A stretch of DNA of 30,451 nucleotides. Origin: a virus (lineage: Duplodnaviria; Heunggongvirae; Uroviricota; Caudoviricetes). The translations under genes were made by a program, and so were the position numbers. Below, one piece after another: positions 2,564 to 30,451 of the stretch; within the stretch, counting starts at the first letter, position 1, and every line of letters begins with the position of its first letter. The notes under the pieces are model-generated. The model saw only the letters and a program-made list of their open reading frames with translations, was not told the origin of the DNA and made no database searches. The stretch is from IMG/VR virus record IMGVR_UViG_2728369554_000010, positions 1-30,451 of that record. One strand, written 5' to 3'.

Positions 2564-3189
2564 CAGGAAAACTCCGGTGCCGGGAGTCCCATGTTTTTAT
2601 GCTCGGCAATAATCATTGCTTTCACATTTCCGTCAGACAGCGTATTGCCCAGGCTGGTTGTTTTGTCTGGTGCGGTGCTTCGTTTGATGGTGTTGATGGC
2701 ATCACGAGCGATAAACTCTCCCTGCGCAATTGCCCGACCAAAACGAACCAGTTTATTGCGATAGGCGATTCTTTGCTCTAGGCTATCCGGATACATTTTT
2801 GCCAGGTTATCCGGATCCATTACAATTTTGACAGCCTCTTTAACACGGGTGTGCTGCTTAATTGACTCTTCGCATATTTTTATGATTTTTGCGGTTTTGT
2901 CAGTAAACAGTGCTCCCTTGCCTCTGTTCTGTCGTTCTTCAATGACTGCATTGAGCGCGGCGCGCATGTTGTCATTCAGCCCGTTGATATATTCAATAGC
3001 TTCTTCGAGAGGCAGAAACACCTGACCATCATGATGCTCAAATGTAAGCATTGAAACCACTCTGGCGTGTGTCGCGGATTCAATAACTGTTGTTGGTAGT
3101 ATCGTGCTTTTAGCTGGCACCGGAGCCAGTGATGCTGTCAGAGCTGTAGTAATAGCAGCAATGGCAGCAGACTTTGATTTTCGTTTCAT
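2563..3189 (-). CDS. Hypothetical signal-peptide (secreted/periplasmic) protein, translationally coupled to the YafO-like gene
   Basis: ORF 2563-3201; preferred start MKRKSKS at about 3189 with GGAG 6-7 nt upstream; N-terminus has basic n-region, Ala/Thr-rich h-region and PVPA-K cleavage-like site; no resemblance to YafN/Phd antitoxins. Confidence 0.5.
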   Translation of the reverse strand: MKRKSKSAAIAAITTALTASLAPVPAKSTILPTTVIESATHARVVSMLTFEHHDGQVFLPLEEAIEYINGLNDNMRAALNAVIEERQNRGKGALFTDKTAKIIKICEESIKQHTRVKEAVKIVMDPDNLAKMYPDSLEQRIAYRNKLVRFGRAIAQGEFIARDAINTIKRSTAPDKTTSLGNTLSDGNVKAMIIAEHKNMGLPAPEFS

Positions 3190-3261
3190 AATGCACTCCA
3201 CAGGTTGATGTGTTCAGCATATCGCAAATAGCAGCTTGTATAAAGAAACGCCACATCAGCA

Positions 3262-3523
3262 GCGATCGTTTTACGCGCTTTTCTTCTTGTTGCGATCCTT
3301 TTTTTCAGTTTTATTTTGGAGCTTAATTTTGTGCAGGCCGCGCCGTGTCTGCCTTCTTTGTTTGATGGCTGTTTGATGCGATCCTTTCGTGATCGTTTTT
3401 TTGTCTCGCGTAAAGTATGAAAACTCTTTTAATATCATGCGGTTTTATTGCTCCGGCCATTTGTGCGATCGTAAAAACCACTTTGAAAACTGCAAAAAAT
3501 TTCAAAGCGTGAAATTTCAGATC
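3262..3523. promoter_or_regulatory. GATC-rich intergenic region with repeated GCGATC(G/C)TTTT-like motifs
   Basis: Six GATC sites in about 260 bp (near 3264, 3294, 3380, 3391, 3467, 3520), several inside a reiterated GCGATC-T-run motif; lies upstream of the secreted-protein/YafO-like operon. Confidence 0.35.
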
Positions 3524-3628
3524 TTCGCTTTTCCCTCAGTTGCTGCGCGGGCTGGCGGTCATTTTTGCACGGCAGAAAACTGAAAAACTGTTTCGACACG
3601 AAACCCGCGGGTTGGAGGGGGTAGCGCG

Positions 3629-3671
3629 GTTTACGTCACCTCACGCTTTACGTCACACCGTTTACGCGGTG
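3629..3671. repeat. Three direct repeats of TTTACG(T/C) motif (iteron-like) near the prophage boundary
   Basis: GTTTACGTCAC, CTTTACGTCAC, CGTTTACGCGG at 15-17 bp spacing; adjacent GTTTCG-ACA-CGAAAC and AACCCGCGGGTT palindromes at about 3586-3612. Confidence 0.4.
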
Positions 3672-3789
3672 TGCGCATACAGCGCCAGAATGGCACGCAG
3701 AACGCATTAATCAGGTGGCAGATATGAAAACGCACGACCGGAGCCGTGCGTTGCGTGATGGGCGTTTATGGGGGTGGTATGCCCGGTGA

Positions 3790-5487
3790 TCAGGCGATAA
3801 GGTCACCGTATTTTTCGCGCAGGCTCGTAGCCTGTTTGGCGTCTGCGGCAAGTTCGCTGCTGTTTGTTGGTGCGCCGGTGTTGCTGTGGGTGTGGTTTGC
3901 AGTGTGTGTGGCCAGCAACTGAACCAGATCCAGAATATCAATCAACAACGTCAGCAGATTAAGTCCGGATTTTTCCCGTGAGCCACCGCGACCAATAAAT
4001 ACTGTCGGGGCTGTAAACTCCAGACCACCGTCCGCCCGGCATGTTCTGCGGCCTCCCACGTTTTCAGTAAGGTCGCGCTCAATCGTGGATGTCGCCCCTT
4101 TGAGTTTAGTCAGCAAATCCTGCGCTACCATCTGGATATGCTCACCGGCTGCGATCGCATAATGACCAGTAGTAATGTGTTCTGTCTGGCCTGTCATCAG
4201 CTTGCTGGTTCCCAGAACGCTGGTTATGTCGTTTGCCTGTACTGTTGTTGTTCTGGTTGTTGTTGTGCGTTCTTCCTGATCGCTGTTAATGGTTCGTCTG
4301 GCTGAATGCTCCCTGATTTGCTGATCGGTTTCTCTGTGCCAGCTTCCGTCAGTCGTGACGCGCTGAAACACTTCTGCGCGCTGTTGCTGCAGCTGTTCGC
4401 CGGGCTTTACATCAGGCAGGTTATGGCCAGCGGGTAAGATTTGCCTGATAACGGGTTTGTCCGGACGTCCTTCAATGTTGGATATTTCCACGATGGTGCC
4501 TGCCGGTGGGTAGGCAAAACATCCCGCCTCACTGCCAGCCATGGGGACGGGGAGCGGTACTGCCGGGTAAACGGGCGTGTCGCTTTTATCGTTGCCGTTC
4601 TCATCAAGCAACTGCACATCGACGGCGTAGCGTGGGCGGAAACTGTCGGCCACGTCGCCCAGGGTGGTGGGCTCCGTTGGCGCAATGACGCGCGCCAGCC
4701 GGGTATGTAGCGTACCGCTGGCCAGTTCCGGGAACTGTGTTTCCATTTGTCTGCGTAATGGTGATTTGGAAACAGGGTTACCCGTGGCGGTAAGGCGCTC
4801 CCATGTCAGGGTCATTTTCTCGTTGTTGAGGGCTACACGGGTAATGCGCCCGGCCGGTAGGTTCACGCCCGGTCGCACAGTTTCCATAAACATGATGTCG
4901 ATGCTGTTTCCGCCGCTTTGCCCGAGTGTGTACTGTTGCGGAATATCCGGTATTGTAATACTGGCAAATCGTGAATCAGCTGCGCTTCCCACAAATACAG
5001 AACCGTCCGGCATAGGGTGCCAGACGTAATCGCTGATACTGAATGCTCGCCCCAGTTGGCTGAGCAGTTGTGCTCCGCTGCCACTGTGGGTGATGTAGGG
5101 AGTTGGTATACTGGCATAATCCGCATCCGGAGTGATAAAAACGATACCGCTTTGTCGCCCCAGATTATCGAGTACCCCCCGCAACGTCGGGTGTTGCATG
5201 GAGCAAGGGAAATCAAAATCCAGCACAGCAGCCGCTTCACGAATAAAAAGGCGACGTGAGCCATTTTCAGCAGGTTGATCGCGCTCAATGTAGCCGGAGA
5301 AATAGCGCCATGCTTCACCGTCACGGCCGAGATCAATTTGTACCATTGCGCCGGCAAGGCTGTGTTCGGGTGACAGATTGTTAACAGAAATGAAGCCACG
5401 ACCGGCAGCATTCAGGGTAAGAACAAGGCTTATATCGGCAATTTCCACCTGTTCGCCATTAATCATGCAGCGTTGTATCAATTTCAT
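3790..5487 (-). CDS. Phage tail protein, putative baseplate central spike/hub-like (C-terminal HxH apex-like motif)
   Basis: 565 aa; last gene of the late operon, start overlaps upstream stop; C-terminal LLATHTANHTHSNTGAPT resembles the His-rich apex of P2 gpV-type spikes (from memory); function not certain. Confidence 0.4.
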   Translation of the reverse strand: MKLIQRCMINGEQVEIADISLVLTLNAAGRGFISVNNLSPEHSLAGAMVQIDLGRDGEAWRYFSGYIERDQPAENGSRRLFIREAAAVLDFDFPCSMQHPTLRGVLDNLGRQSGIVFITPDADYASIPTPYITHSGSGAQLLSQLGRAFSISDYVWHPMPDGSVFVGSAADSRFASITIPDIPQQYTLGQSGGNSIDIMFMETVRPGVNLPAGRITRVALNNEKMTLTWERLTATGNPVSKSPLRRQMETQFPELASGTLHTRLARVIAPTEPTTLGDVADSFRPRYAVDVQLLDENGNDKSDTPVYPAVPLPVPMAGSEAGCFAYPPAGTIVEISNIEGRPDKPVIRQILPAGHNLPDVKPGEQLQQQRAEVFQRVTTDGSWHRETDQQIREHSARRTINSDQEERTTTTRTTTVQANDITSVLGTSKLMTGQTEHITTGHYAIAAGEHIQMVAQDLLTKLKGATSTIERDLTENVGGRRTCRADGGLEFTAPTVFIGRGGSREKSGLNLLTLLIDILDLVQLLATHTANHTHSNTGAPTNSSELAADAKQATSLREKYGDLIA

Positions 5488-6059
5488 GTTTTCCCTTCCT
5501 CTTTCACGCTCCCGATGCCAACAGCATCCAGACCAGAGCCAACGGCATCATTGATTTTTTTCCAGAACGAACTTTGCGTATTCATGCCTTTGTCTGGTAC
5601 CTGTTCGCTGCCATTCTGGGTCTGCTGTCTGGCGATGGTTTTTTGCGAACCGCTGCGTGCGGATGCTTTCTCTGGCACGCTTAATTTTTCCCTGAGAGTA
5701 AAGGTGATCTGCCAGTGCATTTTTCCCTGTTGTTCCGTGGCATCAATGCCACCAGAAAATACCCCCTGTCGCATATTGATTGCCTTCGCGGTAGCGTTAG
5801 CAATGCGATATGTTTTTTTAGCACCGTTGCTTTCTGTTGCCTCCGCAAGCTGAAAAATACGGGTCAGAATAGCTTCATCGTTAAAATCAATAACCCCCGA
5901 CACGCGCAGCTCTTTAGCCTTGTTTCCCTGCTGGGCGCTCGTGGTGCTGGTTGACTGTCCGGACATATCTTTGTCCGGTAGTTGCATGGTGGCGCTGACG
6001 GTGATGTTACGCAGCAGAATGGCTTCCCCGTCAAGCGCAAGGACAATCATCTGGGTCAT
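5484..6059 (-). CDS. Phage tail-associated protein, function unknown
   Basis: 191-aa ORF whose stop overlaps the spike-like gene start; sits in the tail operon; no motif I can name. Confidence 0.4.
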   Translation of the reverse strand: MTQMIVLALDGEAILLRNITVSATMQLPDKDMSGQSTSTTSAQQGNKAKELRVSGVIDFNDEAILTRIFQLAEATESNGAKKTYRIANATAKAINMRQGVFSGGIDATEQQGKMHWQITFTLREKLSVPEKASARSGSQKTIARQQTQNGSEQVPDKGMNTQSSFWKKINDAVGSGLDAVGIGSVKEEGKT

Positions 6060-13426: not shown

Positions 13427-13768
13427 CAAGAGATACCGTAAAAGTCAGGGGTTCAAAAAAATCTTCGGTGTGGGCGCTAATCAGCAGGCGACCAGAAAGC
13501 GGGGTTTCTTCTGTCACACTGACCGTGCCAGGTGTGATGCGCTCATCATCTTCAATCAGCAGTGTCATCTGCATCATGATGTCGGCACGAAGCGTCGGGC
13601 TTTTTTCAGCCAGCAGGCGCGTTGCCAGTCCGCTCTCAATGATGGCGTGCTGGCAGTCCTGGGCAATACTTTCCCTGTTGTTGCATAACACTGGTTCACT
13701 GGCGCTGTTCAGCGTGAGATTGCGGCCGGTGATGAGCAAATCAATGTAAAGCGGTTTATCAGTATGCA
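13419..13768 (-). CDS. Small baseplate-position protein (gpW-like position), function uncertain
   Basis: ORF 13419-13895 overlaps the tape-measure 3' end; internal ATG (MHTDKPLYIDLL) at about 13768 gives about 116 aa starting just after the tape-measure stop. Confidence 0.35.
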
Positions 13769-15855
13769 TGCAGCTCCATCCACTCGTTAAGACGGGCAGG
13801 GGATGGATCCTGCACATTGACGTTGACCACACGACGGGAGTTGTCGATTGTGGTCTGGTTTTCGCTGTTGTTCTGCATTTCTGCCGCAATGCCACCCGGC
13901 CCCGCGCTGATGGCTTTACCGCCGGTTAATACGGAGCCTTCGCCACTTCCTGTGCTTTCTGATGTGCCGATGTTAACGCCGGGGATCATGTTGAGTTTGC
14001 CCACAATCCAGCCCCATGAATCACTGAAGGACTGTTTCACCAGTTCCCAGAGATTACTGAAAATCTTCAGTATGCCGCCGGCGAGATCCTTCAGGGCATC
14101 CAGTGGTGAATGGGTGGAAAAATAGTTAACCAGTGCATTCCAGCCGTCCTGGATTGTGTTCCATGCATTGCCGAACCATGCCCCCATACTGCCGACCATT
14201 TCAGCCACCCACTGAAAGGCGGCGGTATCCATCAGCGCGGCTTTAATCTCATCCCAGCGGGTGATCAGGAAATAAATGCCCACGCCCAGCGCAGCCAGTG
14301 CCAGGATGATTAATGTGATGGGGCTGAAAAGTAACTGTGTTGCAATTGCAGCTCCGCTGGTGACTGCGGTGTAGATTTTCATTGCTATGCCGGCGGCACC
14401 CAGCGCAACAGAATAAAGCCAGAGTCCGGCGCGCTGTAATTTCAGCAGCGCCAGCTGAATTTTTGCTTTGACGTTGTATGTTCCCATAGCAATAGACATG
14501 GCCAGATACAGCGCCCTGACCGTTCGGGCAACTACAGTGAATGCCCACATGGTAGCCGTCAGTGTGCGTTTCAGCAGAATGAGAATCTTCAGAGGTGTAA
14601 CTGCTGCCAGCCAGACCAGCCGCAGTCCTGTCCAGACAAACTTCGCCACACCCACCATAATGTTGACAACGGCACCCACTGCGGCAATGCCCAGCAGGGC
14701 GGCAGACAGTAAACCAATAGCCCGTGTGATATTGGGATACAGACGTAACCAGGCAACAAAGGATTTACCGCCTTCGTTGCTTTTCTGGATAAACGGGTAC
14801 AGAACAGGCAGCAACTGCGTGCCGATTTCGATGCGAATGCCGTTAATAATTGCGGCGGCCTGTTCCCATGGATCAACCATGGCCTGCGCCATTTCGACAG
14901 CCTTATCCATACCTTTGATATTGCCCAGCGTGGCGATATTCTTTTCAAGTCCGCCAATGTCCGCATTGAGTAATTTAATCATGGCCACAGCTTCATCGGA
15001 GCCAAAGGCGCTTTTCAGCAAATCGGAATCAGCCACTTTTGACAGATCACCAAATTTGCCCCTGATAAGTTTCATGATCTCGACAACACTTTTCATCGTG
15101 CCGTCTTTATTCACGAAATTAAGCCCCAGCTTTTTCTGGGCGCTGCCTACTGCGGCAAGAAATGCCTTGTACTTTGTCCCGGCCTCGCTGCCACTCATGG
15201 TGGCCTGCAGTTGTCCCAGCACGGCGAACTGTTCAGCCGCATCAATACCGGCCGCTTTTGCACTGGCACCCAGCGTGGTGAACGCCGCTGACATGTTATC
15301 GCCGGTTGTTTTAAACATTTGCACGGCGGTGGCGGTTTGCCCGGCGACCTGCTCCACCCATTTGCTTTTTCCCATGGCATCAGCCTGGTCTTTAAAGATG
15401 CCGTACATGGTGCCCATGTAGGCGGTAATGGTCTGGCTGCTGGATTTGGTTGCTGCTGCCACCGTTGCTGATGCGGTGGTGAAGCGGGACAGCTCATCGT
15501 CAGTTAACCCGGCAATGGCTGACTGGATGTCGTAAGAAGCACGCACAAAATCCTGCGCAGCCCCGCCGTATTCCATAGTGAAATCAACGGCGGCGCGGCT
15601 GAGTTTACGCAATCCGGACTCTGCGACGCCCAGTGATTTCACCTCACCGAGCGCCCTGTCCATTTCAATGGCTGGCATCAGTGCCCCCTGAATGGCTGCA
15701 CCCACTCCCCAGAGCGCAGCGCCTCCGGTAGCAATGTCCCGAAAGGCTCCCCGACTTGTTGCAGCAAATCCCTGAACCTGTCGCCCGGCTGCACGCAACG
15801 GCCTTGTCAGGCGGTCTGTCAGTTCAAGAAGTAATTCAAGGCGCTGTTGTGACAT
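13759..15855 (-). CDS. Tail tape measure protein
   Basis: 698 aa, Ala/Gly-rich with central hydrophobic segments; immediately downstream of the frameshifted chaperone pair. Confidence 0.8.
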   Translation of the reverse strand: MSQQRLELLLELTDRLTRPLRAAGRQVQGFAATSRGAFRDIATGGAALWGVGAAIQGALMPAIEMDRALGEVKSLGVAESGLRKLSRAAVDFTMEYGGAAQDFVRASYDIQSAIAGLTDDELSRFTTASATVAAATKSSSQTITAYMGTMYGIFKDQADAMGKSKWVEQVAGQTATAVQMFKTTGDNMSAAFTTLGASAKAAGIDAAEQFAVLGQLQATMSGSEAGTKYKAFLAAVGSAQKKLGLNFVNKDGTMKSVVEIMKLIRGKFGDLSKVADSDLLKSAFGSDEAVAMIKLLNADIGGLEKNIATLGNIKGMDKAVEMAQAMVDPWEQAAAIINGIRIEIGTQLLPVLYPFIQKSNEGGKSFVAWLRLYPNITRAIGLLSAALLGIAAVGAVVNIMVGVAKFVWTGLRLVWLAAVTPLKILILLKRTLTATMWAFTVVARTVRALYLAMSIAMGTYNVKAKIQLALLKLQRAGLWLYSVALGAAGIAMKIYTAVTSGAAIATQLLFSPITLIILALAALGVGIYFLITRWDEIKAALMDTAAFQWVAEMVGSMGAWFGNAWNTIQDGWNALVNYFSTHSPLDALKDLAGGILKIFSNLWELVKQSFSDSWGWIVGKLNMIPGVNIGTSESTGSGEGSVLTGGKAISAGPGGIAAEMQNNSENQTTIDNSRRVVNVNVQDPSPARLNEWMELHAY

Positions 15856-16336
15856 TACGATCCCTTAAAAGCACGGATAATGCCGTTATTGACGGCGATG
15901 CTCATATTTTCCCAGTAGTGGTTATCCAGCCAGACGGCGGCAGCCAGTGACTGCGGCGAGTCATCCTCGCCGGGCAGCCAGTGGCGGCGCAGAATCAGCA
16001 TCCGGGTAAGGTCATTGCGATCAATGGCCCCCAGATGGCTTTTTATTTTTTTACGGTGATTTCCACTTCCGGCACAAACTCGTTATTCACGGCTGTTGCC
16101 AGGCTGGCCGGCATTCCTGGTTTTTCCAGCAACTGGTTCAGCAGATCGCGGTGCTCTTTAATCACGATACGGCGCAGGTAGTTTTTCAGCGGCGCGATTT
16201 TGTTATCCGGCATGAAGTCGTTCTGCAGGTCGTTGTAGGCTTTTACGGTCGGGATAAACGTCAGTTCATGCTCGCCGACCTGTAAAGTGATGGTGTTCTC
16301 TGCGGTAGTCTGGGTGTTTTTATCGTTCATCATCAT
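15855..16336 (-). CDS. Tail assembly chaperone extended form (gpE+E'-like) by programmed -1 frameshift
   Basis: A7 slippery heptamer at about 16046-16052; the -1 frame after it is open for 64 codons (IKSHLGAIDRNDL...IIRAFKGS) and stops at TAATG overlapping the tape-measure start. Confidence 0.5.
16043..16336 (-). CDS. Tail assembly chaperone (gpE-like)
   Basis: 97-aa ORF directly upstream of tape measure; ends GTA-AAA-AAA-TAA, i.e. an A7 slippery run immediately before the stop. Confidence 0.6.
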   Translation of the reverse strand: MMMNDKNTQTTAENTITLQVGEHELTFIPTVKAYNDLQNDFMPDNKIAPLKNYLRRIVIKEHRDLLNQLLEKPGMPASLATAVNNEFVPEVEITVKK

Positions 16337-16400
16337 TTCCTTTTAAAGTCAAGAATAAGAGGGCTTAATAAGCCTGCAGGAAGGCTTATTAAGCGTAAAA

Positions 16401-16742
16401 TCAGCGCACGCCGTCGTGCTCAAGGCTGAAATGATTGCCATCCGGGCGGTTTTTAAAACGACCGCCCCATGCGCCACCAAGGGATTCCCAGTACTCGCCC
16501 AGCTCGCGGTAGGCCTCTGTGCGGGTCTGATATTCACCGTTAATAAACAGATTAAAATCCACGGCCAGCCGCTGGCAGTGCAGGCTGTTGGCAATGCCGG
16601 ATCCCTTTTGTGCGTTGAGTTTTGCCTGTTCTGGCGTGCGGTACGCCTCACCGAACGTCAGGCCATAACCGCGCTGATGGGCAAACTGGATGAGTTTTCC
16701 GATCATGACGGTAAATTGTTGTTGCTTATCGGAGAGTTTCAT
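16401..16742 (-). CDS. Endolysin, peptidase M15-type (L-alanyl-D-glutamate peptidase-like)
   Basis: 113 aa with SLHCQRLAVDF (H-x6-D) and DGNHFSLEH zinc-ligand-like motifs characteristic of small M15 endolysins. Confidence 0.7.
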   Translation of the reverse strand: MKLSDKQQQFTVMIGKLIQFAHQRGYGLTFGEAYRTPEQAKLNAQKGSGIANSLHCQRLAVDFNLFINGEYQTRTEAYRELGEYWESLGGAWGGRFKNRPDGNHFSLEHDGVR

Positions 16743-16846
16743 TTTTGCTCCTTATGAGGTTGCTGAGGTTTGCGCAGCCAGTACCACAGTGCCCGGATAA
16801 TTTTCCAGGCAATGGCGGCAGCTTTTTGTTCCCTGCGGGACAGCAT
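16739..16846 (-). CDS. Small ORF (35 aa, MLSRREQKAAAIAWKIIRALWYWLRKPQQPHKEQK) between holin and endolysin
   Basis: AGGAG 8 nt upstream of ATG (inside the holin 3' end); stop overlaps endolysin ATG (ATGA); amphipathic/hydrophobic core; below the ORF-track size cutoff. Confidence 0.3.
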   Translation of the reverse strand: MLSRREQKAAAIAWKIIRALWYWLRKPQQPHKEQK

Positions 16847-16851
16847 TGCTG

Positions 16852-17148
16852 TTACTCCTCTTTGTTCTCTTTCTCGCCCAGCTTCCGGCGCATATGACGC
16901 AGGAAGATTTCAACAATCTGGTAACCGGCAACGCCCATTGCGGTGCCTGCGCCGGCAATGGCCAGTGGGTCAAGGTTCGGGTAGCGAACCAGCAGGGCAG
17001 CGGCAGAAACACCCAGCGCGCTCCCCAGCAGGGTTCGGCCCACAAACAACCGCAACGTAATCGGCTCTGCGCCAGCCAGCACCCGACTTGCGGCAGCGAT
17101 TCCGCCCAGAATGCCCAGAGTGATAATGGTGCGCTCATGCTCCTGCAT
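16852..17148 (-). CDS. Holin-like small membrane protein
   Basis: 98 aa with hydrophobic stretches (IITLGILGGIAAA; LLGSALGVSAAALLV; AIAGAGTAMGVAGY) and charged C-terminus RRKLGEKENKEE; immediately upstream of endolysin. Confidence 0.6.
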   Translation of the reverse strand: MQEHERTIITLGILGGIAAASRVLAGAEPITLRLFVGRTLLGSALGVSAAALLVRYPNLDPLAIAGAGTAMGVAGYQIVEIFLRHMRRKLGEKENKEE

Positions 17149-17151
17149 GGT

Positions 17152-17607
17152 TCACCCCATCAGTCCGCGCACGTCGTTCTCTGAGAGAACGGGCACGCCG
17201 TTGATACGCACAAAGTCAGGGCTTGCCACCACGTACTTGATTTTGTGCGTGGTCAGATCTGCGCTCTCGGTGTCAATGCTTAACAGGCCGGAAAGCATCA
17301 GCTCACAACCGAAGGCTTCGACGCGGATTTCTTCGGTTCCCGTATTGGCGTAAAACACAAAATCCATTGGCGGCAGGTCACGCCACGATCCCGCCTGAGC
17401 AGCCACTTCCCCGAGCTGGTTAAAGCTGCGGGTACTCATTTCGATTTCACCTTCGGCACTGACAGGGCCGCGCAGTTTACCGTCAGGGATGCCACGGGTT
17501 TTGGCAACGGCGCTTTCATCGCTGATGTCCAGTGAGATGCTTTTCACATGGATATCCGTTCCACCGATAAAAGTGTCAAACGCCATGCCGTTAATGCGGG
17601 TCGTCAT
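17152..17607 (-). CDS. Tail tube-like protein (putative)
   Basis: 151 aa, coupled to the upstream sheath-like gene (overlapping stop/start); assignment by size and position. Confidence 0.4.
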   Translation of the reverse strand: MTTRINGMAFDTFIGGTDIHVKSISLDISDESAVAKTRGIPDGKLRGPVSAEGEIEMSTRSFNQLGEVAAQAGSWRDLPPMDFVFYANTGTEEIRVEAFGCELMLSGLLSIDTESADLTTHKIKYVVASPDFVRINGVPVLSENDVRGLMG

Positions 17608-18752
17608 GCGTTTTCCTCCAGAGATTTATCCAGCTGAATGCCCACTTTGATGGTTTTAGGGCAGGCGTAAGGGCGGACGACAATGCTGATGCTGACCGTC
17701 TTTTCGTCCTGCCAGGTGATAACCACGTCGCCTTTCCGGGGCGATTTCACTTCGCCCGGAAACGTGATGCCGTTAATTTGCATGGATTTCGCCATGGCAC
17801 GCAGTGGGCGGGCAAACAGCGTTTCATGTGCGGCAATGCTGCCCGGCGTGCTGTTCAGCGAGCGGTCGGCAATCTTGGGGATGGCCATCAGCCGCACGCG
17901 GCGCGCCACCTTATCAGCAATGCGGACATGCTCAATGACGTTGTAGTCCCCGCCTTCCACCTCAAGTGTTACACCGTCAGCCCAGTAAAGGCCGTCATAG
18001 TCGGCATACCACATGGGCACGCTGTAGCGGGCGGTTGCCAGTGCCTGCAGAGTGTCGAGATCAATTGCCTGCCCTGTGCTGTCTTTCGGGCGTTCTGTGG
18101 TTTTCAGTGCGGACAGGTGCCCGGTTGCCACACGTGCCGGACTGTCAGCAATGGTGACGGCGCTGTTACACAGGCGACCGGCAAGAACGCCCGGTTCAAA
18201 TCCAAAAATCTCCGGAACCAGCATGACCTGCGGGGCTGCAATGCCTTTCTGTAGTGCGGTCAGTTCGGCAACGTATTCCGCCCAGGTTTTACTGTTGTCG
18301 TTGGCGGCGATGGTCAGGATGAACCAGATGCGGCGCTGATATTTATTGATGATGGTCTGACGTAACGCCTGTATGGCGTTGATGTCATCCTTCGTGCTGA
18401 CCGGCTCGGTGATCACCACGCCTTCAACTGAAACAGTTTCCTGAGCCGCCAGTATGGCGTTCTGCCATACCTGGCAGGCTGGCGTTGCTTCTTTGCCTTT
18501 GCCGGCTTCCGGCAGAACGGCAACATAGAAAAAGGCATTCTGTCCGGCATTGGTCAGTGCAGACTGAAGGAAGTTCTTCAGCGGGCTGGCGTTCTTTCCC
18601 AGTAGCTCATCCAGATCGCTGTTGGCATTAACCGGCAGAACCTCACCTTTGTTGTTTTGTGCATTGCCCACAAACAGCAGCGTATTTTCCACGCCGTCCG
18701 GTGAACTGCTGAATGTGTTGTACTGTTCAATCGTGACAGATGGCCATGTCAT
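17604..18752 (-). CDS. Tail sheath-like protein (putative)
   Basis: ORF 17604-18884; preferred start MTWPSVTIEQY at about 18752 with AGGAG 7 nt upstream; about 382 aa; assignment by size and position. Confidence 0.4.
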   Translation of the reverse strand: MTWPSVTIEQYNTFSSSPDGVENTLLFVGNAQNNKGEVLPVNANSDLDELLGKNASPLKNFLQSALTNAGQNAFFYVAVLPEAGKGKEATPACQVWQNAILAAQETVSVEGVVITEPVSTKDDINAIQALRQTIINKYQRRIWFILTIAANDNSKTWAEYVAELTALQKGIAAPQVMLVPEIFGFEPGVLAGRLCNSAVTIADSPARVATGHLSALKTTERPKDSTGQAIDLDTLQALATARYSVPMWYADYDGLYWADGVTLEVEGGDYNVIEHVRIADKVARRVRLMAIPKIADRSLNSTPGSIAAHETLFARPLRAMAKSMQINGITFPGEVKSPRKGDVVITWQDEKTVSISIVVRPYACPKTIKVGIQLDKSLEENA

Positions 18753-18771
18753 GGTTTGTCTCCTGATTTTG

Positions 18772-19485
18772 TTATCTCGTGCCGCCGTAATGCAGGCTGC
18801 GCAGCTGCGCTTCCAGAATGCGGGCAAATTCAGCATCGCTGGCTCCCAGAAATGCGCGGGAGGGGATTTTGATTTCCCATACACGTTTTTTCTGCTCGCC
18901 TTTCAGAATGCTGATCACCAGTCCGGCCTGCGCCATACTCATGTTTTCCATAATCCATTTCAGAGAAGGCTTTCTGCGTCCCCTGCGTCCGGTTTTTTTG
19001 TTGACTGCGCCGACGGGGGCGCGAAAGCCCAGAGAAAGAAGGCGTTCTGCCTGCCGTCGTGTGGCGGGACGGGTGCGCATGGCTTCGCTGTCCCGGCGTT
19101 TTGTGGCGCGGCCTTTGATGGTTGCGCCGTGCTGTTGCACCCACGCGACCGCCCCACCATGAGAGCCGGTGTTGTAATCCCCTTTTTTGAAGAAAAGGCG
19201 GACACTTTTCCCGCTGCCGTCAACCCTGATGGCCAGCAGTTTCGGCAGTCCCAGCAGCATTTTGTTTTTATACCTGCCGCCGGCTTTATCCGGTCTTTTT
19301 CGTGGTGCCCAGGCTGCCCCCTCCGGTGTTCGCTGTGCTTTCACATTGCGTCGTGCAGCCGGTATCAGGCCGTATTTCGCAATGCGAACCAGCAGCTTTC
19401 TGGCCTTTGCCGGCGGAAGTTCTGCCTCTCTGATGGCGCGACGAACCTGCCGGAGTTGTGACTCGTTAATCACGGGGCGCGTCAT
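18772..19485 (-). CDS. Phage virion morphogenesis / tail completion protein (gpS-like)
   Basis: 237 aa, basic, between head-completion and sheath-like genes; overlaps upstream gene by 4 nt. Confidence 0.5.
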   Translation of the reverse strand: MTRPVINESQLRQVRRAIREAELPPAKARKLLVRIAKYGLIPAARRNVKAQRTPEGAAWAPRKRPDKAGGRYKNKMLLGLPKLLAIRVDGSGKSVRLFFKKGDYNTGSHGGAVAWVQQHGATIKGRATKRRDSEAMRTRPATRRQAERLLSLGFRAPVGAVNKKTGRRGRRKPSLKWIMENMSMAQAGLVISILKGEQKKRVWEIKIPSRAFLGASDAEFARILEAQLRSLHYGGTR

Positions 19486-28700: not shown

Positions 28701-30451
28701 TTCCACTGGTCAGGCCACCCCGCAGCAGGTCTGCTTTGCGGCGGGCGCGTTCAGTTGTTTCACTGATTCTCTGTGCGTGCTCTGCGTCACGGATGGCGCG
28801 CAGCATGTCAGAAAGCACGGTAACGGGGGTTTTCATGGTGTTCTGGTCCTGCTGAAGTGTGGATGCCAGGCGTGCGGCGGCTTCGGGGTCTGATGCCCCC
28901 AGCTGTTCCAGATAGCTGGCGACCGGGTTATGGCGGATCCCCGTGCTGCTTACGCCGTGATTACGGCTCAGGCGCTGCCAGAGCTGCGTGATTCGGCTGT
29001 CCGGGCTGGTATCCGGTTTGCGTACAATTTCAAATCCCTGCGGTGCAATGATGCTGCCGTCAACGTACAGGCTGCCGCCCCGTAACAGGTGCTGCATCTG
29101 CTGTTCACCGATATGCAGGCCGAGAGATTCAGCAGACTCCCGCCATTCTTTAGCGAGTAACTCGTGGTTATCAGGCAAAGGCTGTGGCTGTTTGCGGCTC
29201 TGTGTCCAGTTCTGCATTTCATCACTGCTGTTTTTTGCCTGTTTGTCACGCAGCGAACGCATCAGCGCCCGGCGTTCGTGCCGTTTCAGTGAGCGCATCC
29301 ATTCATTCACGTCAACGCTGTCAGGAAGCTGCGGCCACGGTGCTGGCCGTTCTTCCGGCTGTTCTGTCCCGTTGTTGTCCGTTTCCTGTACACGGGGACA
29401 GTTATTGCCACGAGTCCAAGGGGCGGCAGGGCCGCCCTGAAGGTCAAAACCATTTTCGCGGGCGCTGTCTTCCGTTTCCGGTTTACGTCTTACCAGCTTC
29501 CAGTTATCCGGATGCGTGCACACACGGGAGGATTCCCCGATGAGTGGCGACCAGATCCCGTAAATCTGTACGCTCTGTTCGCCGTAATCGTTCAGCTCAT
29601 CTGCGAGGTCGTAGGCGGTGCGAATCAGGTAGTCTTTGCGTGGAACAAGAACGCCGCCCTGTTTCTCTATGTAGGTGGCAAAACATCCGGCATCAGCGGC
29701 AGCAAGAACCGCATCCATTGCGTCATCCTTCAGCCGTTGCGGGCCTTCCGGGTTGCGTGCCATCTGGCTGGCAAGGCGGCGCAGTTCACGCCACACCTGA
29801 CGGGAGGGGATGNNNNNNNNNNNNNNNNNNNNNNNNNNNNNNNNNNNNNNNNNNGTGAAGGCGCGCCCAGCCGATAGCGCGCTCCACGCTCTCGGCCATT
29901 GATTTTCCGGTTTCATGGTCAACGCGTGGCTTGCCCGTTTTTGGGTCGATACCATCCACGGCGCGGCTGCTCAGGTTTTTTCCGATGTAGGTGGCGATGT
30001 AGCTGGTTGGCGTGCCTTTTGAGCCGTCGACGTACTCCGCTTTAAAACGCGGAGTTATGTCATCGCCCAGCTCGTGGCGGTCTTCCTGAATGGCAATATC
30101 GCGGGTGATGGCCACGATGCTGTCGATTTCTTCCGGATGAGCAAAGACCATCATATGCCAGTGCACAGTGCCGTCATGGTGAGGCTCCACCGTGCGGATG
30201 CCATACCAACGAAGGCCGTCGCGGTTCAGTTTTTTGCGGACCGCTGCAAAAAACGTGTTAACCAGGTAATCGCTGGAGTCGCGCATGGTGGCCCCGTTCC
30301 ATTTGGGATTCGGATGACCGTTCTCTGTTGTGGCATGGTATTTTGACGGGCAGGTGACAGTCAGAAACACCGCTCTGTCGCCACGGGCTTCGGCCAGAAG
30401 TTCCAGCCCCTTCATGGTGGCCATCATTTCTGCCTTACGGTGAACCGGGTT
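28633..30451 (-). CDS. A: Replication initiator gpA-like (rolling-circle, HUH-type), 5'-truncated by window edge and split by a gap
   Basis: Two ORF-track pieces (28633-29955, 29786-30427) in different frames across the N run; reading frame stays open to position 30451; contains GTVHWHMMVFA HUH-like motif. Confidence 0.65.
29813..29854. other. Assembly gap (42 N) inside gene A
   Basis: Run of N in the sequence; flanking A fragments are in different frames, so the true gap length is unknown. Confidence 0.95.

Follow-up and report, generated by a model that had tools for sequence, protein, structure and literature searches.

The window analysed here, a stretch of 30,451 nucleotides (positions 1 to 30,451 of the Caudoviricetes record IMGVR_UViG_2728369554_000010 in IMG/VR), carries on its minus strand a lysis cassette composed of a holin gene, a 35-codon open reading frame (ORF) and the gene of an M15 endolysin. 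These three ORFs had been proposed in an earlier reading of the sequence alone, and each of them was confirmed from the sequence, as were the strong Shine-Dalgarno (SD) motif of the small ORF and the ATGA through which it is coupled to the endolysin gene; the identities given to the holin and the endolysin were supported by both Pfam and PHROG (Table 1). The cassette has no spanin genes, and the link between this absence and the small ORF, whose product may be a disruptin-like peptide, is the interesting part of the locus, which the sequence-only reading had not drawn.

The tail tube protein encoded directly upstream is 50.7% identical to that of HP1 orf24, and 3 nt separate its stop codon from the holin ATG. 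The HP1-type holin shows two hydropathy peaks (approximately residues 6-27 and 39-55) and a charged C-terminal tail, and no dual-start motif was found in its sequence. The endolysin contains the M15 domain (PF13539 with a score of 44.1 bits, the cut-off being 25) and the motifs H55-x6-D62 and D101-x2-H104 (D101-G-N-H104), whose residues we take, by analogy, to be the Zn ligands. Its sequence has neither a signal nor a signal-anchor-release (SAR) sequence, and a sequence search of the PDB identified no solved homologue.

In P2, the lysis cassette is located between the head-completion and tail-completion genes, and by comparison with this phage the position inside the tail operon had been considered unusual. 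Homologous cassettes are, on the contrary, standard at this position in a known phage group, and the location of the lysis cassette within the tail operon is the normal layout for the HP1-like branch of Peduoviridae. The gene order of Haemophilus phage HP1 (Hpunavirus) is as follows: orf23 (sheath), orf24 (tube), hol, lys, orf25 (Rz-like spanin), orf26 and orf27, while that of Evevirus ev239 and Irrigatiovirus SI7 is tube, holin, endolysin, Rz-like spanin, chaperone and tape measure; 88 distinct cassettes of related loci (see below) are arranged alike. A search with the tube protein returned 75 phage records of the HP1-like branch, including K139, F108, phiO18P, ESSI-2 and phi3. The window, best read as an HP1-like, P2-family prophage of E. 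coli, conforms to this pattern, with the PF04550 holin gene directly after the PF10772 tube gene and before the PF10963 chaperone gene. P2 belongs to the same family, and its lysis genes (Y holin, K endolysin, lysA, lysB and lysC) also lie in a late operon, with overlapping reading frames, but the HP1-like branch, including the window, has the cassette after the tube gene instead.

HP1, ev239, SI7, Cronobacter ESSI-2 and Yersinia vB_YenM_324 resemble the window in the genomic place of the cassette and in the PF04550 holin, and the enterobacterial HP1-like members share with it the same M15 endolysin of 112-113 aa, 75-83% identical to that of the window. In these HP1-like phages, however, the holin gene overlaps the endolysin gene, which is followed by the genes of an inner-membrane spanin (i-spanin) and an overlapping outer-membrane spanin (o-spanin), whereas the window has the 35-codon ORF in front of the endolysin gene and a 64-nt hairpin spacer behind it. 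Apart from the missing spanins and the coupled mini-ORF, the cassette is of the known HP1 type.

Table 1. Features of the lysis cassette and of the adjoining tail genes (positions in the window)
Feature	Position	Strand	Assignment or remark
Sheath	17604-18884	minus	DUF2586; PHROG tail sheath
Tail tube, 151 aa	17152-17607	minus	PF10772 Phage_HP1_Orf24 (E 1.1e-50); PHROG 1182 tail protein
Holin, 98 aa, HP1-type	16852-17148	minus	PF04550 Phage_holin_3_2 (E 5.5e-28); PHROG 175 (E 1.2e-32)
SD motif of the small ORF, GAGGAG	16855-16860	minus	Within the last holin codons, 8 nt 5' of the ATG
Small ORF, 35 codons	16739-16846	minus	Peptide MLSRREQKAAAIAWKIIRALWYWLRKPQQPHKEQK; candidate outer-membrane disruptor (disruptin-like), net charge +7
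SD motif of the endolysin gene, AAGGAG	16748-16753	minus	Inside the small ORF, 5 nt 5' of the endolysin ATG
ATGA	16739-16742	minus	Stop of the small ORF overlapping the endolysin start; read from the sequence
Endolysin, 113 aa, M15 zinc peptidase	16401-16742	minus	PF13539 Peptidase_M15_4 (E 3.2e-11); PHROG endolysin families
Hairpin, 13-bp perfect stem	16363-16394	minus	Terminator-like site between the endolysin and chaperone genes
Tail assembly chaperone	16043-16336	minus	PF10963 (E 1.6e-26)
DUF6890 ORF, 48 aa	15855-16001	minus	Between the chaperone and tape measure genes
Tape measure	13759-15855	minus	Downstream of the DUF6890 ORF

Absence of spanin genes from one of two cassette types

Two-component spanins, such as Rz/Rz1 of lambda and LysB/LysC of P2, perform the step that is otherwise missing from the cassette of the window, and in its closest relatives they are encoded directly 3' of the endolysin gene. 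Approximately 200 related loci were collected from IMG/VR and metagenomes with the holin and the endolysin as queries, and the architecture of the cassette was measured for each locus. The unique cassettes split, with no exception, into type A (88 distinct cassettes) and type B (23, including the sequence of the window itself; 22 in a separate count of the ORF). In type A, the holin and endolysin genes overlap or abut (-14 to 0 nt, with L208 as the one outlier at 59 nt), and the 475-509 nt between the endolysin and chaperone genes hold an annotated Rz-like i-spanin and an overlapping, mostly unannotated lipoprotein ORF, the latter being present in 88/88. In type B, the holin and endolysin genes are 100-118 nt apart, with the small ORF in the gap, and only a hairpin spacer of 64-86 nt, containing neither a transmembrane nor a lipoprotein ORF, precedes the chaperone gene. 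The window departs from type A in both respects, as its endolysin start lies behind a 109-nt gap and no i-spanin and o-spanin genes are located between its endolysin and chaperone genes.

For Escherichia phage ESSI2_ev239 (NC_049392, locus L002) and Salmonella phage SI7 (NC_049460, locus L003) only the Rz-like spanin is annotated in RefSeq, and an overlapping lipoprotein ORF of 98-99 aa, which reaches the chaperone start (5537-5836 with the lipobox LSAC in ev239, 5533-5829 with TSGC in SI7), is left unannotated in both. To judge by its sequence, this ORF is the o-spanin partner. One of the type A lipoprotein ORFs gave a weak match to PF23793 (LysC/Rz1-like).

The absence of a spanin pair downstream of the endolysin gene, already noticed in the sequence-only reading, was corroborated, since there are only 64 nt before the chaperone gene. 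The search for spanin-like genes elsewhere in the prophage, which the same reading had proposed, was carried out by scanning for lipoboxes, both in the window and across the entire prophage as present in a 100%-identical E. coli genome; this yielded antisense and alternative-frame artefacts and no credible lipoprotein ORF. As a control, the scan recovered the o-spanin in 2 of 3 spanin-bearing loci, the third having a longer signal peptide. A hidden o-spanin at 16349-16477, in an alternative frame over the 3' end of the endolysin gene and with the lipobox-like sequence STTAC, was considered and rejected: only 5-19 aa follow the Cys, these are not conserved from one lineage to another, and L024 has lost the internal ATG. 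The endolysin and holin genes are also overlapped, on the minus strand, by two longer alternative-frame ORFs at 16349-16651 (100 aa, ending in STTAC) and 16752-17138 (128 aa); their C-terminal parts are unconserved, and they look like by-products of codon bias.

The endolysin is equal in length, and 75-83% identical, to the endolysins of spanin-bearing relatives, and where the same endolysin family occurs in other phage types, ordinary spanins follow. As these family relatives are spanin-associated and of the same length, the endolysin is unlikely to break the outer membrane itself. Other phage types with PF04550 holins (the P2-like loci L115, L124, L148 and L174) have normal spanins and no small ORF. 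A further P2-like locus, L190 (IMGVR_UViG_2671180641_000001, 3001-4030), contains genes for a PF04550-type holin and a lysozyme of 164 aa, then a hydrophobic ORF of 58 aa and tail genes; no recognisable spanin pair was found in it, and it may be a further spanin-less cassette in which the small protein is a different one.

Conservation of the small ORF and of the hairpin spacer

Homologues of the small ORF are confined to spanin-less cassettes and form three lineages: that of the window (35 aa, net charge +7), that of locus L212 (P0062; 39 aa, MKLTDRQQKRAAIAWKILRTLWRWLCKPQKTSKDKNETL, net charge +8) and that of locus L026 (P0058; 41 aa, net charge +9). L212 is identical to the window at 92% in the tube, 80% in the holin, 95% in the endolysin and 90% in the chaperone, and at 54% in the small ORF. 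For L026 the corresponding values are 73% (holin), 86% (endolysin) and about a third (small ORF), and the small ORFs of L026 and L212 share 15% identity. The dS values of the flanking genes between the three lineages are approximately 0.5-1.4. Common to all three are the coupled start and stop of the ORF, the lack of spanins and the hairpin spacer 3' of the endolysin gene. The start of the ORF overlaps the holin stop as ATGA in L212 and as GTGA in L026, and lies 6 nt downstream of it in the window; the SD-like motifs are AAGGA in L212 and GGAGG in L026, and the stop overlaps the endolysin start as ATGA in L026 and by 14 nt in L212. What is conserved in the peptide is the helix core AWK(I/L)(I/L)R-x-LW and the positive charge.

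The peptide appears to be restricted to these lineages. A tblastn search with the 35-aa sequence against 50,697 phage records gave no match even at E = 10, and a profile search of 1.84 billion representative proteins returned only the three lineages and two spurious repeat proteins, so that at this sensitivity no wider family exists (the family alignment is headed by the 41-aa homologue). No match to the peptide was found in Pfam, PHROG or NCBIfam, nor in Rfam, and a blastn-short comparison of the 109-nt insert with the spanin-bearing loci and the rest of the window gave no match that would point to its origin.

The pattern of substitutions speaks for a coding sequence. Within the window type, pN/pS equals 0.21 for the small ORF, 0.03 for the holin gene and 0.07 for the endolysin gene. 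A count of distinct substitutions gave omega-like ratios of 0.35 in the frame of the ORF and of 0.84 and 0.76 in the two others, and an excess of synonymous changes in the frame of the ORF only (p = 0.0075). When the window is compared with L212, dN/dS amounts to 0.30 for the small ORF and 0.04-0.08 for its neighbours (tube, holin, endolysin and chaperone). The ORF is full-length to its normal stop in 20 of the 22 distinct cassettes (32-41 aa, in-frame length variants counted as full-length); one of the other two ends two codons early, and L018 has a stop at codon 28, past the helix. The length variants observed, of -1, +3 and -3 codons, are all in frame. These data make it very probable that the small ORF is a translated gene under moderate purifying selection, one which evolves fast and yet, as the sequences indicate, keeps its physico-chemical character.

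The opposite view, that the ORF is untranslated and the 109-nt spacer non-coding, could refer to the missing PGAP call, the lack of a family match and the frequency of cationic small ORFs arising by chance. It seems highly improbable to us, as the ORF has a strong SD motif at a proper spacing, the synonymous excess is specific to its frame, the frame is open in 20/22 cassettes with the two C-terminal truncations retaining the helix, and all three indel variants are in frame. Moreover, an ORF with the same coupling and charge occurs at the same place where the DNA of the lineages barely aligns, and the spacer matches no Rfam family. The sequence-only reading had suggested an antiholin, a lysis regulator or a spurious ORF; in view of the purifying selection and the three lineages the last of these is unlikely, while the first two retain some probability, as discussed below.

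The ORF might be only a translational bridge with a functionless peptide, which carries the SD motif of the endolysin gene and couples endolysin to holin synthesis across the inserted 110 nt. The start and stop coupling to both neighbours, kept in three lineages, is consistent with this, and so is the divergence of the peptide, which is much faster than that of the neighbouring proteins (54% versus 80-95% identity). However, a pure bridge should show a dN/dS near 1, and the observed values are 0.21-0.35, with the synonymous excess in this frame only. Furthermore, the charge and the AWK(I/L)(I/L)R-x-LW core are conserved, and the relatives couple the two genes by direct overlap, needing no spacer. 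The dN/dS values contradict a pure bridge, and we consider this reading improbable.

The hairpin of the window consists of a perfect 13-bp stem (GCUUAAUAAGCCU/AGGCUUAUUAAGC), followed by the U-rich CCUCUUAUUCUU, and folds with -21 kcal/mol (z -2.9). It occupies the site of the two spanin genes of the relatives and is kept in all three spanin-less lineages. In L026 the stem carries two compensatory pair changes (T-A to G-C and A-T to T-A), and the stem is retained in L212, which argues that the structure is under selection. It may be a partial terminator or attenuator, or an mRNA-stabilising element, located in the tail operon between the abundantly needed sheath, tube and lysis genes on one side and the chaperone and tape-measure genes on the other.

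A possible disruptin in place of the spanins

AlphaFold2, run with the family alignment, predicts that the peptide forms a single helix (residues 4-25, mean pLDDT 75) with a disordered basic tail. On a helical wheel, R4, K8, K15, R18 and R25, together with Q7, A11 and Y22, make up one contiguous polar stripe, with Ala, Ile, Leu and Trp in the remaining positions. Over 18 residues, the hydrophobic moment reaches a maximum of 0.61-0.68 in the three lineages (0.62 in the window), compared with 0.68 for gp28 of phage phiKT, and the maximal Kyte-Doolittle hydropathy over 17 residues (KD(17)) of 0.48-0.81 (0.81 in the window) is too low for a transmembrane helix. With no transmembrane domain, no Cys, no lipobox and no periplasm-spanning length, the product of the small ORF cannot be a spanin.

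In three features that can be read from the sequence, the peptide resembles a disruptin. It is shorter than 80 aa with a net charge of at least +4 (35 aa/+7, 39 aa/+8 and 41 aa/+9 in the three lineages), although 21 of 145 random ORFs of 28-45 aa in the window also have a charge of at least +7, and 3 match its hydrophobic moment; it is predicted to form an amphipathic helix with neither a transmembrane nor a signal sequence; and it is encoded in the lysis cassette of a genome in which the lipobox scan found no spanin or lipoprotein gene. In this GC-rich DNA, charge and amphipathicity alone were rejected as statistical evidence.

The archetype of this class is gp28 of phiKT, a 56-aa peptide of net charge +7 for which an amphipathic helix is predicted, and whose gene is located between those of the endolysin (gp27) and the holin (gp29). 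Lysis by phiKT requires gp28, which complements lambda Rz/Rz1 amber mutants and equals LL-37 in bactericidal activity; it has almost no homologues, and the disruptin class is defined by function (Holt et al.; bioRxiv 10.1101/515445). The phiKT holin is homologous to that of the window (28% identity, E 1e-11) and matches PF04550 with 37.9 bits (cut-off 25). Both systems therefore combine a small cationic peptide of +7 with an amphipathic helix, encoded between the holin and endolysin genes, a PF04550 holin and a genome with no spanin. On the other hand, phiKT is a virulent podovirus with a T4-type lysozyme and a gp28 of demonstrated function, whereas the window represents a temperate myovirus prophage with an M15 peptidase and a peptide whose function we infer. 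In the phiKT genome (Escherichia phage phiKT, NC_019520, locus L211, 22103-22666), gp29 partners the only validated disruptin, and gp28 is still labelled in RefSeq as 'hypothetical OmpW family transmembrane protein'. Among tailed phages that infect Gram-negative bacteria, about 13-15% lack a recognisable spanin (bioRxiv 10.1101/515445; PMC12819732). As of January 2026, phiKT gp28 alone is named as the archetype disruptin, and a paper of that year calls the outer-membrane route of other spanin-less phages an open question (PMC12819732).

We hypothesize that lysis in the clade of the window would proceed as follows. At the end of the late period the PF04550 holin would permeabilise the inner membrane and thereby release the cytoplasmic 113-aa M15 peptidase, which would degrade the murein. 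In the relatives, the i-spanin and the overlapping o-spanin encoded after the endolysin would then break the outer membrane. In the clade of the window both spanin genes are gone, and a 35-41 codon gene, translationally coupled to both the holin and endolysin genes, would instead supply a Trp-rich amphipathic helix with a cationic stripe (+7 to +9), which would bind membranes and destabilise the outer membrane as a disruptin. Spanins carry out this third step in every relative; for the clade of the window, the small peptide is the most economical candidate for it. Translation of the peptide, its membrane activity and the replacement of spanin function are all inferred here, and we assign a probability of roughly 0.45 to the reading of the peptide as disruptin-like and replacing the spanins. 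The fuller proposal, that the gene of 35-41 codons is restricted to this lineage, possibly arose de novo, and encodes an outer-membrane disruptor which resembles an antimicrobial peptide and has replaced the two-component spanin in a temperate Peduoviridae clade of Escherichia, is slightly less probable still.

Several observations weigh against this reading. Translation and activity of the peptide are predictions from sequence. At 35 aa it is shorter than gp28, and BLASTP found no alignment between the two at E <= 100, which says little in a class defined by function. Its charge, as noted, is readily attained by random ORFs of the window, and the dN/dS of its gene is several-fold above that of the neighbouring genes. 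Rare variants have a stop at codon 28 (L018) or a frameshift (the singleton database entries P0059 and P0060), PGAP calls the holin and the endolysin and leaves the 109-nt gap between them empty, and no isolated phage with a cassette of the window type was present in the phage collection searched. Finally, type B is monophyletic in neighbour-joining trees of the tube, holin, endolysin and chaperone; the loss of spanins and the gain of the ORF therefore count as a single evolutionary event and not as repeated co-variation.

The peptide could also act at the level of the holin on the inner membrane, as an antiholin, a timing regulator or an accessory factor, with the outer membrane ruptured by another protein or by no dedicated one. 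Its gene lies directly 3' of the holin gene and is translationally coupled to it, the holin has no dual-start motif, and amphipathic cationic helices bind the anionic inner leaflet. However, in the 88 spanin-bearing relatives no such ORF accompanies the holins, which belong to the same family, and the ORF is present exactly where the spanins are absent; a role as antiholin or regulator leaves unexplained why it occurs only in the clade devoid of both spanin genes. Known antiholins also contain a domain in the membrane or the periplasm; for the peptide, a transmembrane domain is predicted in none of the three lineages. Small accessory lysis proteins at the holin level do exist, e.g. Lcc6 of the Shewanella prophage LambdaSo, which, like the small ORF, is small and was formerly unannotated, and which is needed for lysis besides the holin and endolysin; but Lcc6 is a transmembrane protein of 65 aa, and LambdaSo keeps nested spanins (bioRxiv 10.1101/2024.01.23.576932). 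We consider an action at the holin level unlikely, albeit worth keeping in mind.

Alternatively, the loss of spanins might be a defect of a decaying or domesticated prophage, with the ORF irrelevant to outer-membrane rupture, and it is true that the clade was seen only as prophages and metagenomic contigs, with no isolated virion genome found. Against such a lysis-impaired clade, the spanin-less state and the ORF are, as far as can be read from the sequences, stable over the substantial divergence of the three lineages, and their flanking genes are strongly constrained, those of the tube, holin, endolysin and chaperone having the low dN/dS given above. The genes of the prophage make up a complete P2-type set, beginning with the integrase and reaching to the tail fibres. 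Of 5426 complete E. coli genomes 41 contain it, it also occurs in E. albertii, and cluster members are annotated from Citrobacter as well. Degeneration is accordingly quite improbable as an explanation.

If the disruptin reading is true, the peptide would belong to a second disruptin family, much shorter than and unrelated in sequence to phiKT gp28 and, as in phiKT, paired with a PF04550 holin. To our knowledge, it would be the first disruptin proposed in a prophage. The clade offers a clean natural comparison, as its close relatives have tube, holin family, endolysin and chaperone in common with it and differ only in having spanins in place of the cationic mini-gene. A true disruptin would also provide a search rule, i.e. 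a coupled mini-ORF in the lysis cassette of a spanin-less relative, and a 35-residue peptide rich in Trp, Arg and Lys of possible antimicrobial interest; moreover, automatic annotation by PGAP would be missing a lysis gene found in many E. coli genomes. If it is false, the cassette is an ordinary HP1-type lysis module.

Occurrence of the prophage and neighbouring features

Over the 951 bases that surround the cassette, identity to the chromosomal prophages of the 41 E. coli genomes mentioned above is 95-100%; lysogens with an identical cassette include E. coli STEC711 and EC42405. In E. coli STEC711, the prophage is of a complete P2 type, with cox, replication, ogr, portal, terminase, capsid and tail genes and tail fibres, and its integrase gene adjoins pdxB. 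Among genome contigs, matches to the holin query were obtained in E. albertii only, and members of the small-peptide cluster are also annotated from Citrobacter. Other submitters annotate the small peptide as a hypothetical protein (UniProt A0A2X6GE95).

At the far end of the STEC711 prophage, past the tail fibres and beside flk, there is a hok/gef toxin gene (L001, 31505-31645), approximately 0.8 kb beyond the last annotated prophage gene, which should correspond to approximately 3600-3750 of the window. Genes for ParM and a partition/stability protein also lie beside the replication gene of the prophage, an unusual feature in a P2-like element that is integrated. In the early/replication region of the window, positions 29813-29854 are 42 N, either masked or unresolved.

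Two of the tail genes in Table 1 deserve comment. The mechanically delimited sheath ORF encodes 426 aa from a GTG, and the protein called by PGAP in an identical E. coli record has 382 aa; as the Pfam and PHROG matches begin at about residue 45-47, the true start is probably located about 44 codons downstream. On the 3' side of the chaperone gene, further Pfam matches identify the DUF6890 ORF (PF21830) and the tape measure (PF10145). Although it occupies the place where P2-type phages make a frameshift-extended chaperone (gpE+E'), the DUF6890 ORF is a separate one with its own ATG, 41 nt past the chaperone stop; its stop codon shares 1 nt with the start of the tape measure gene.

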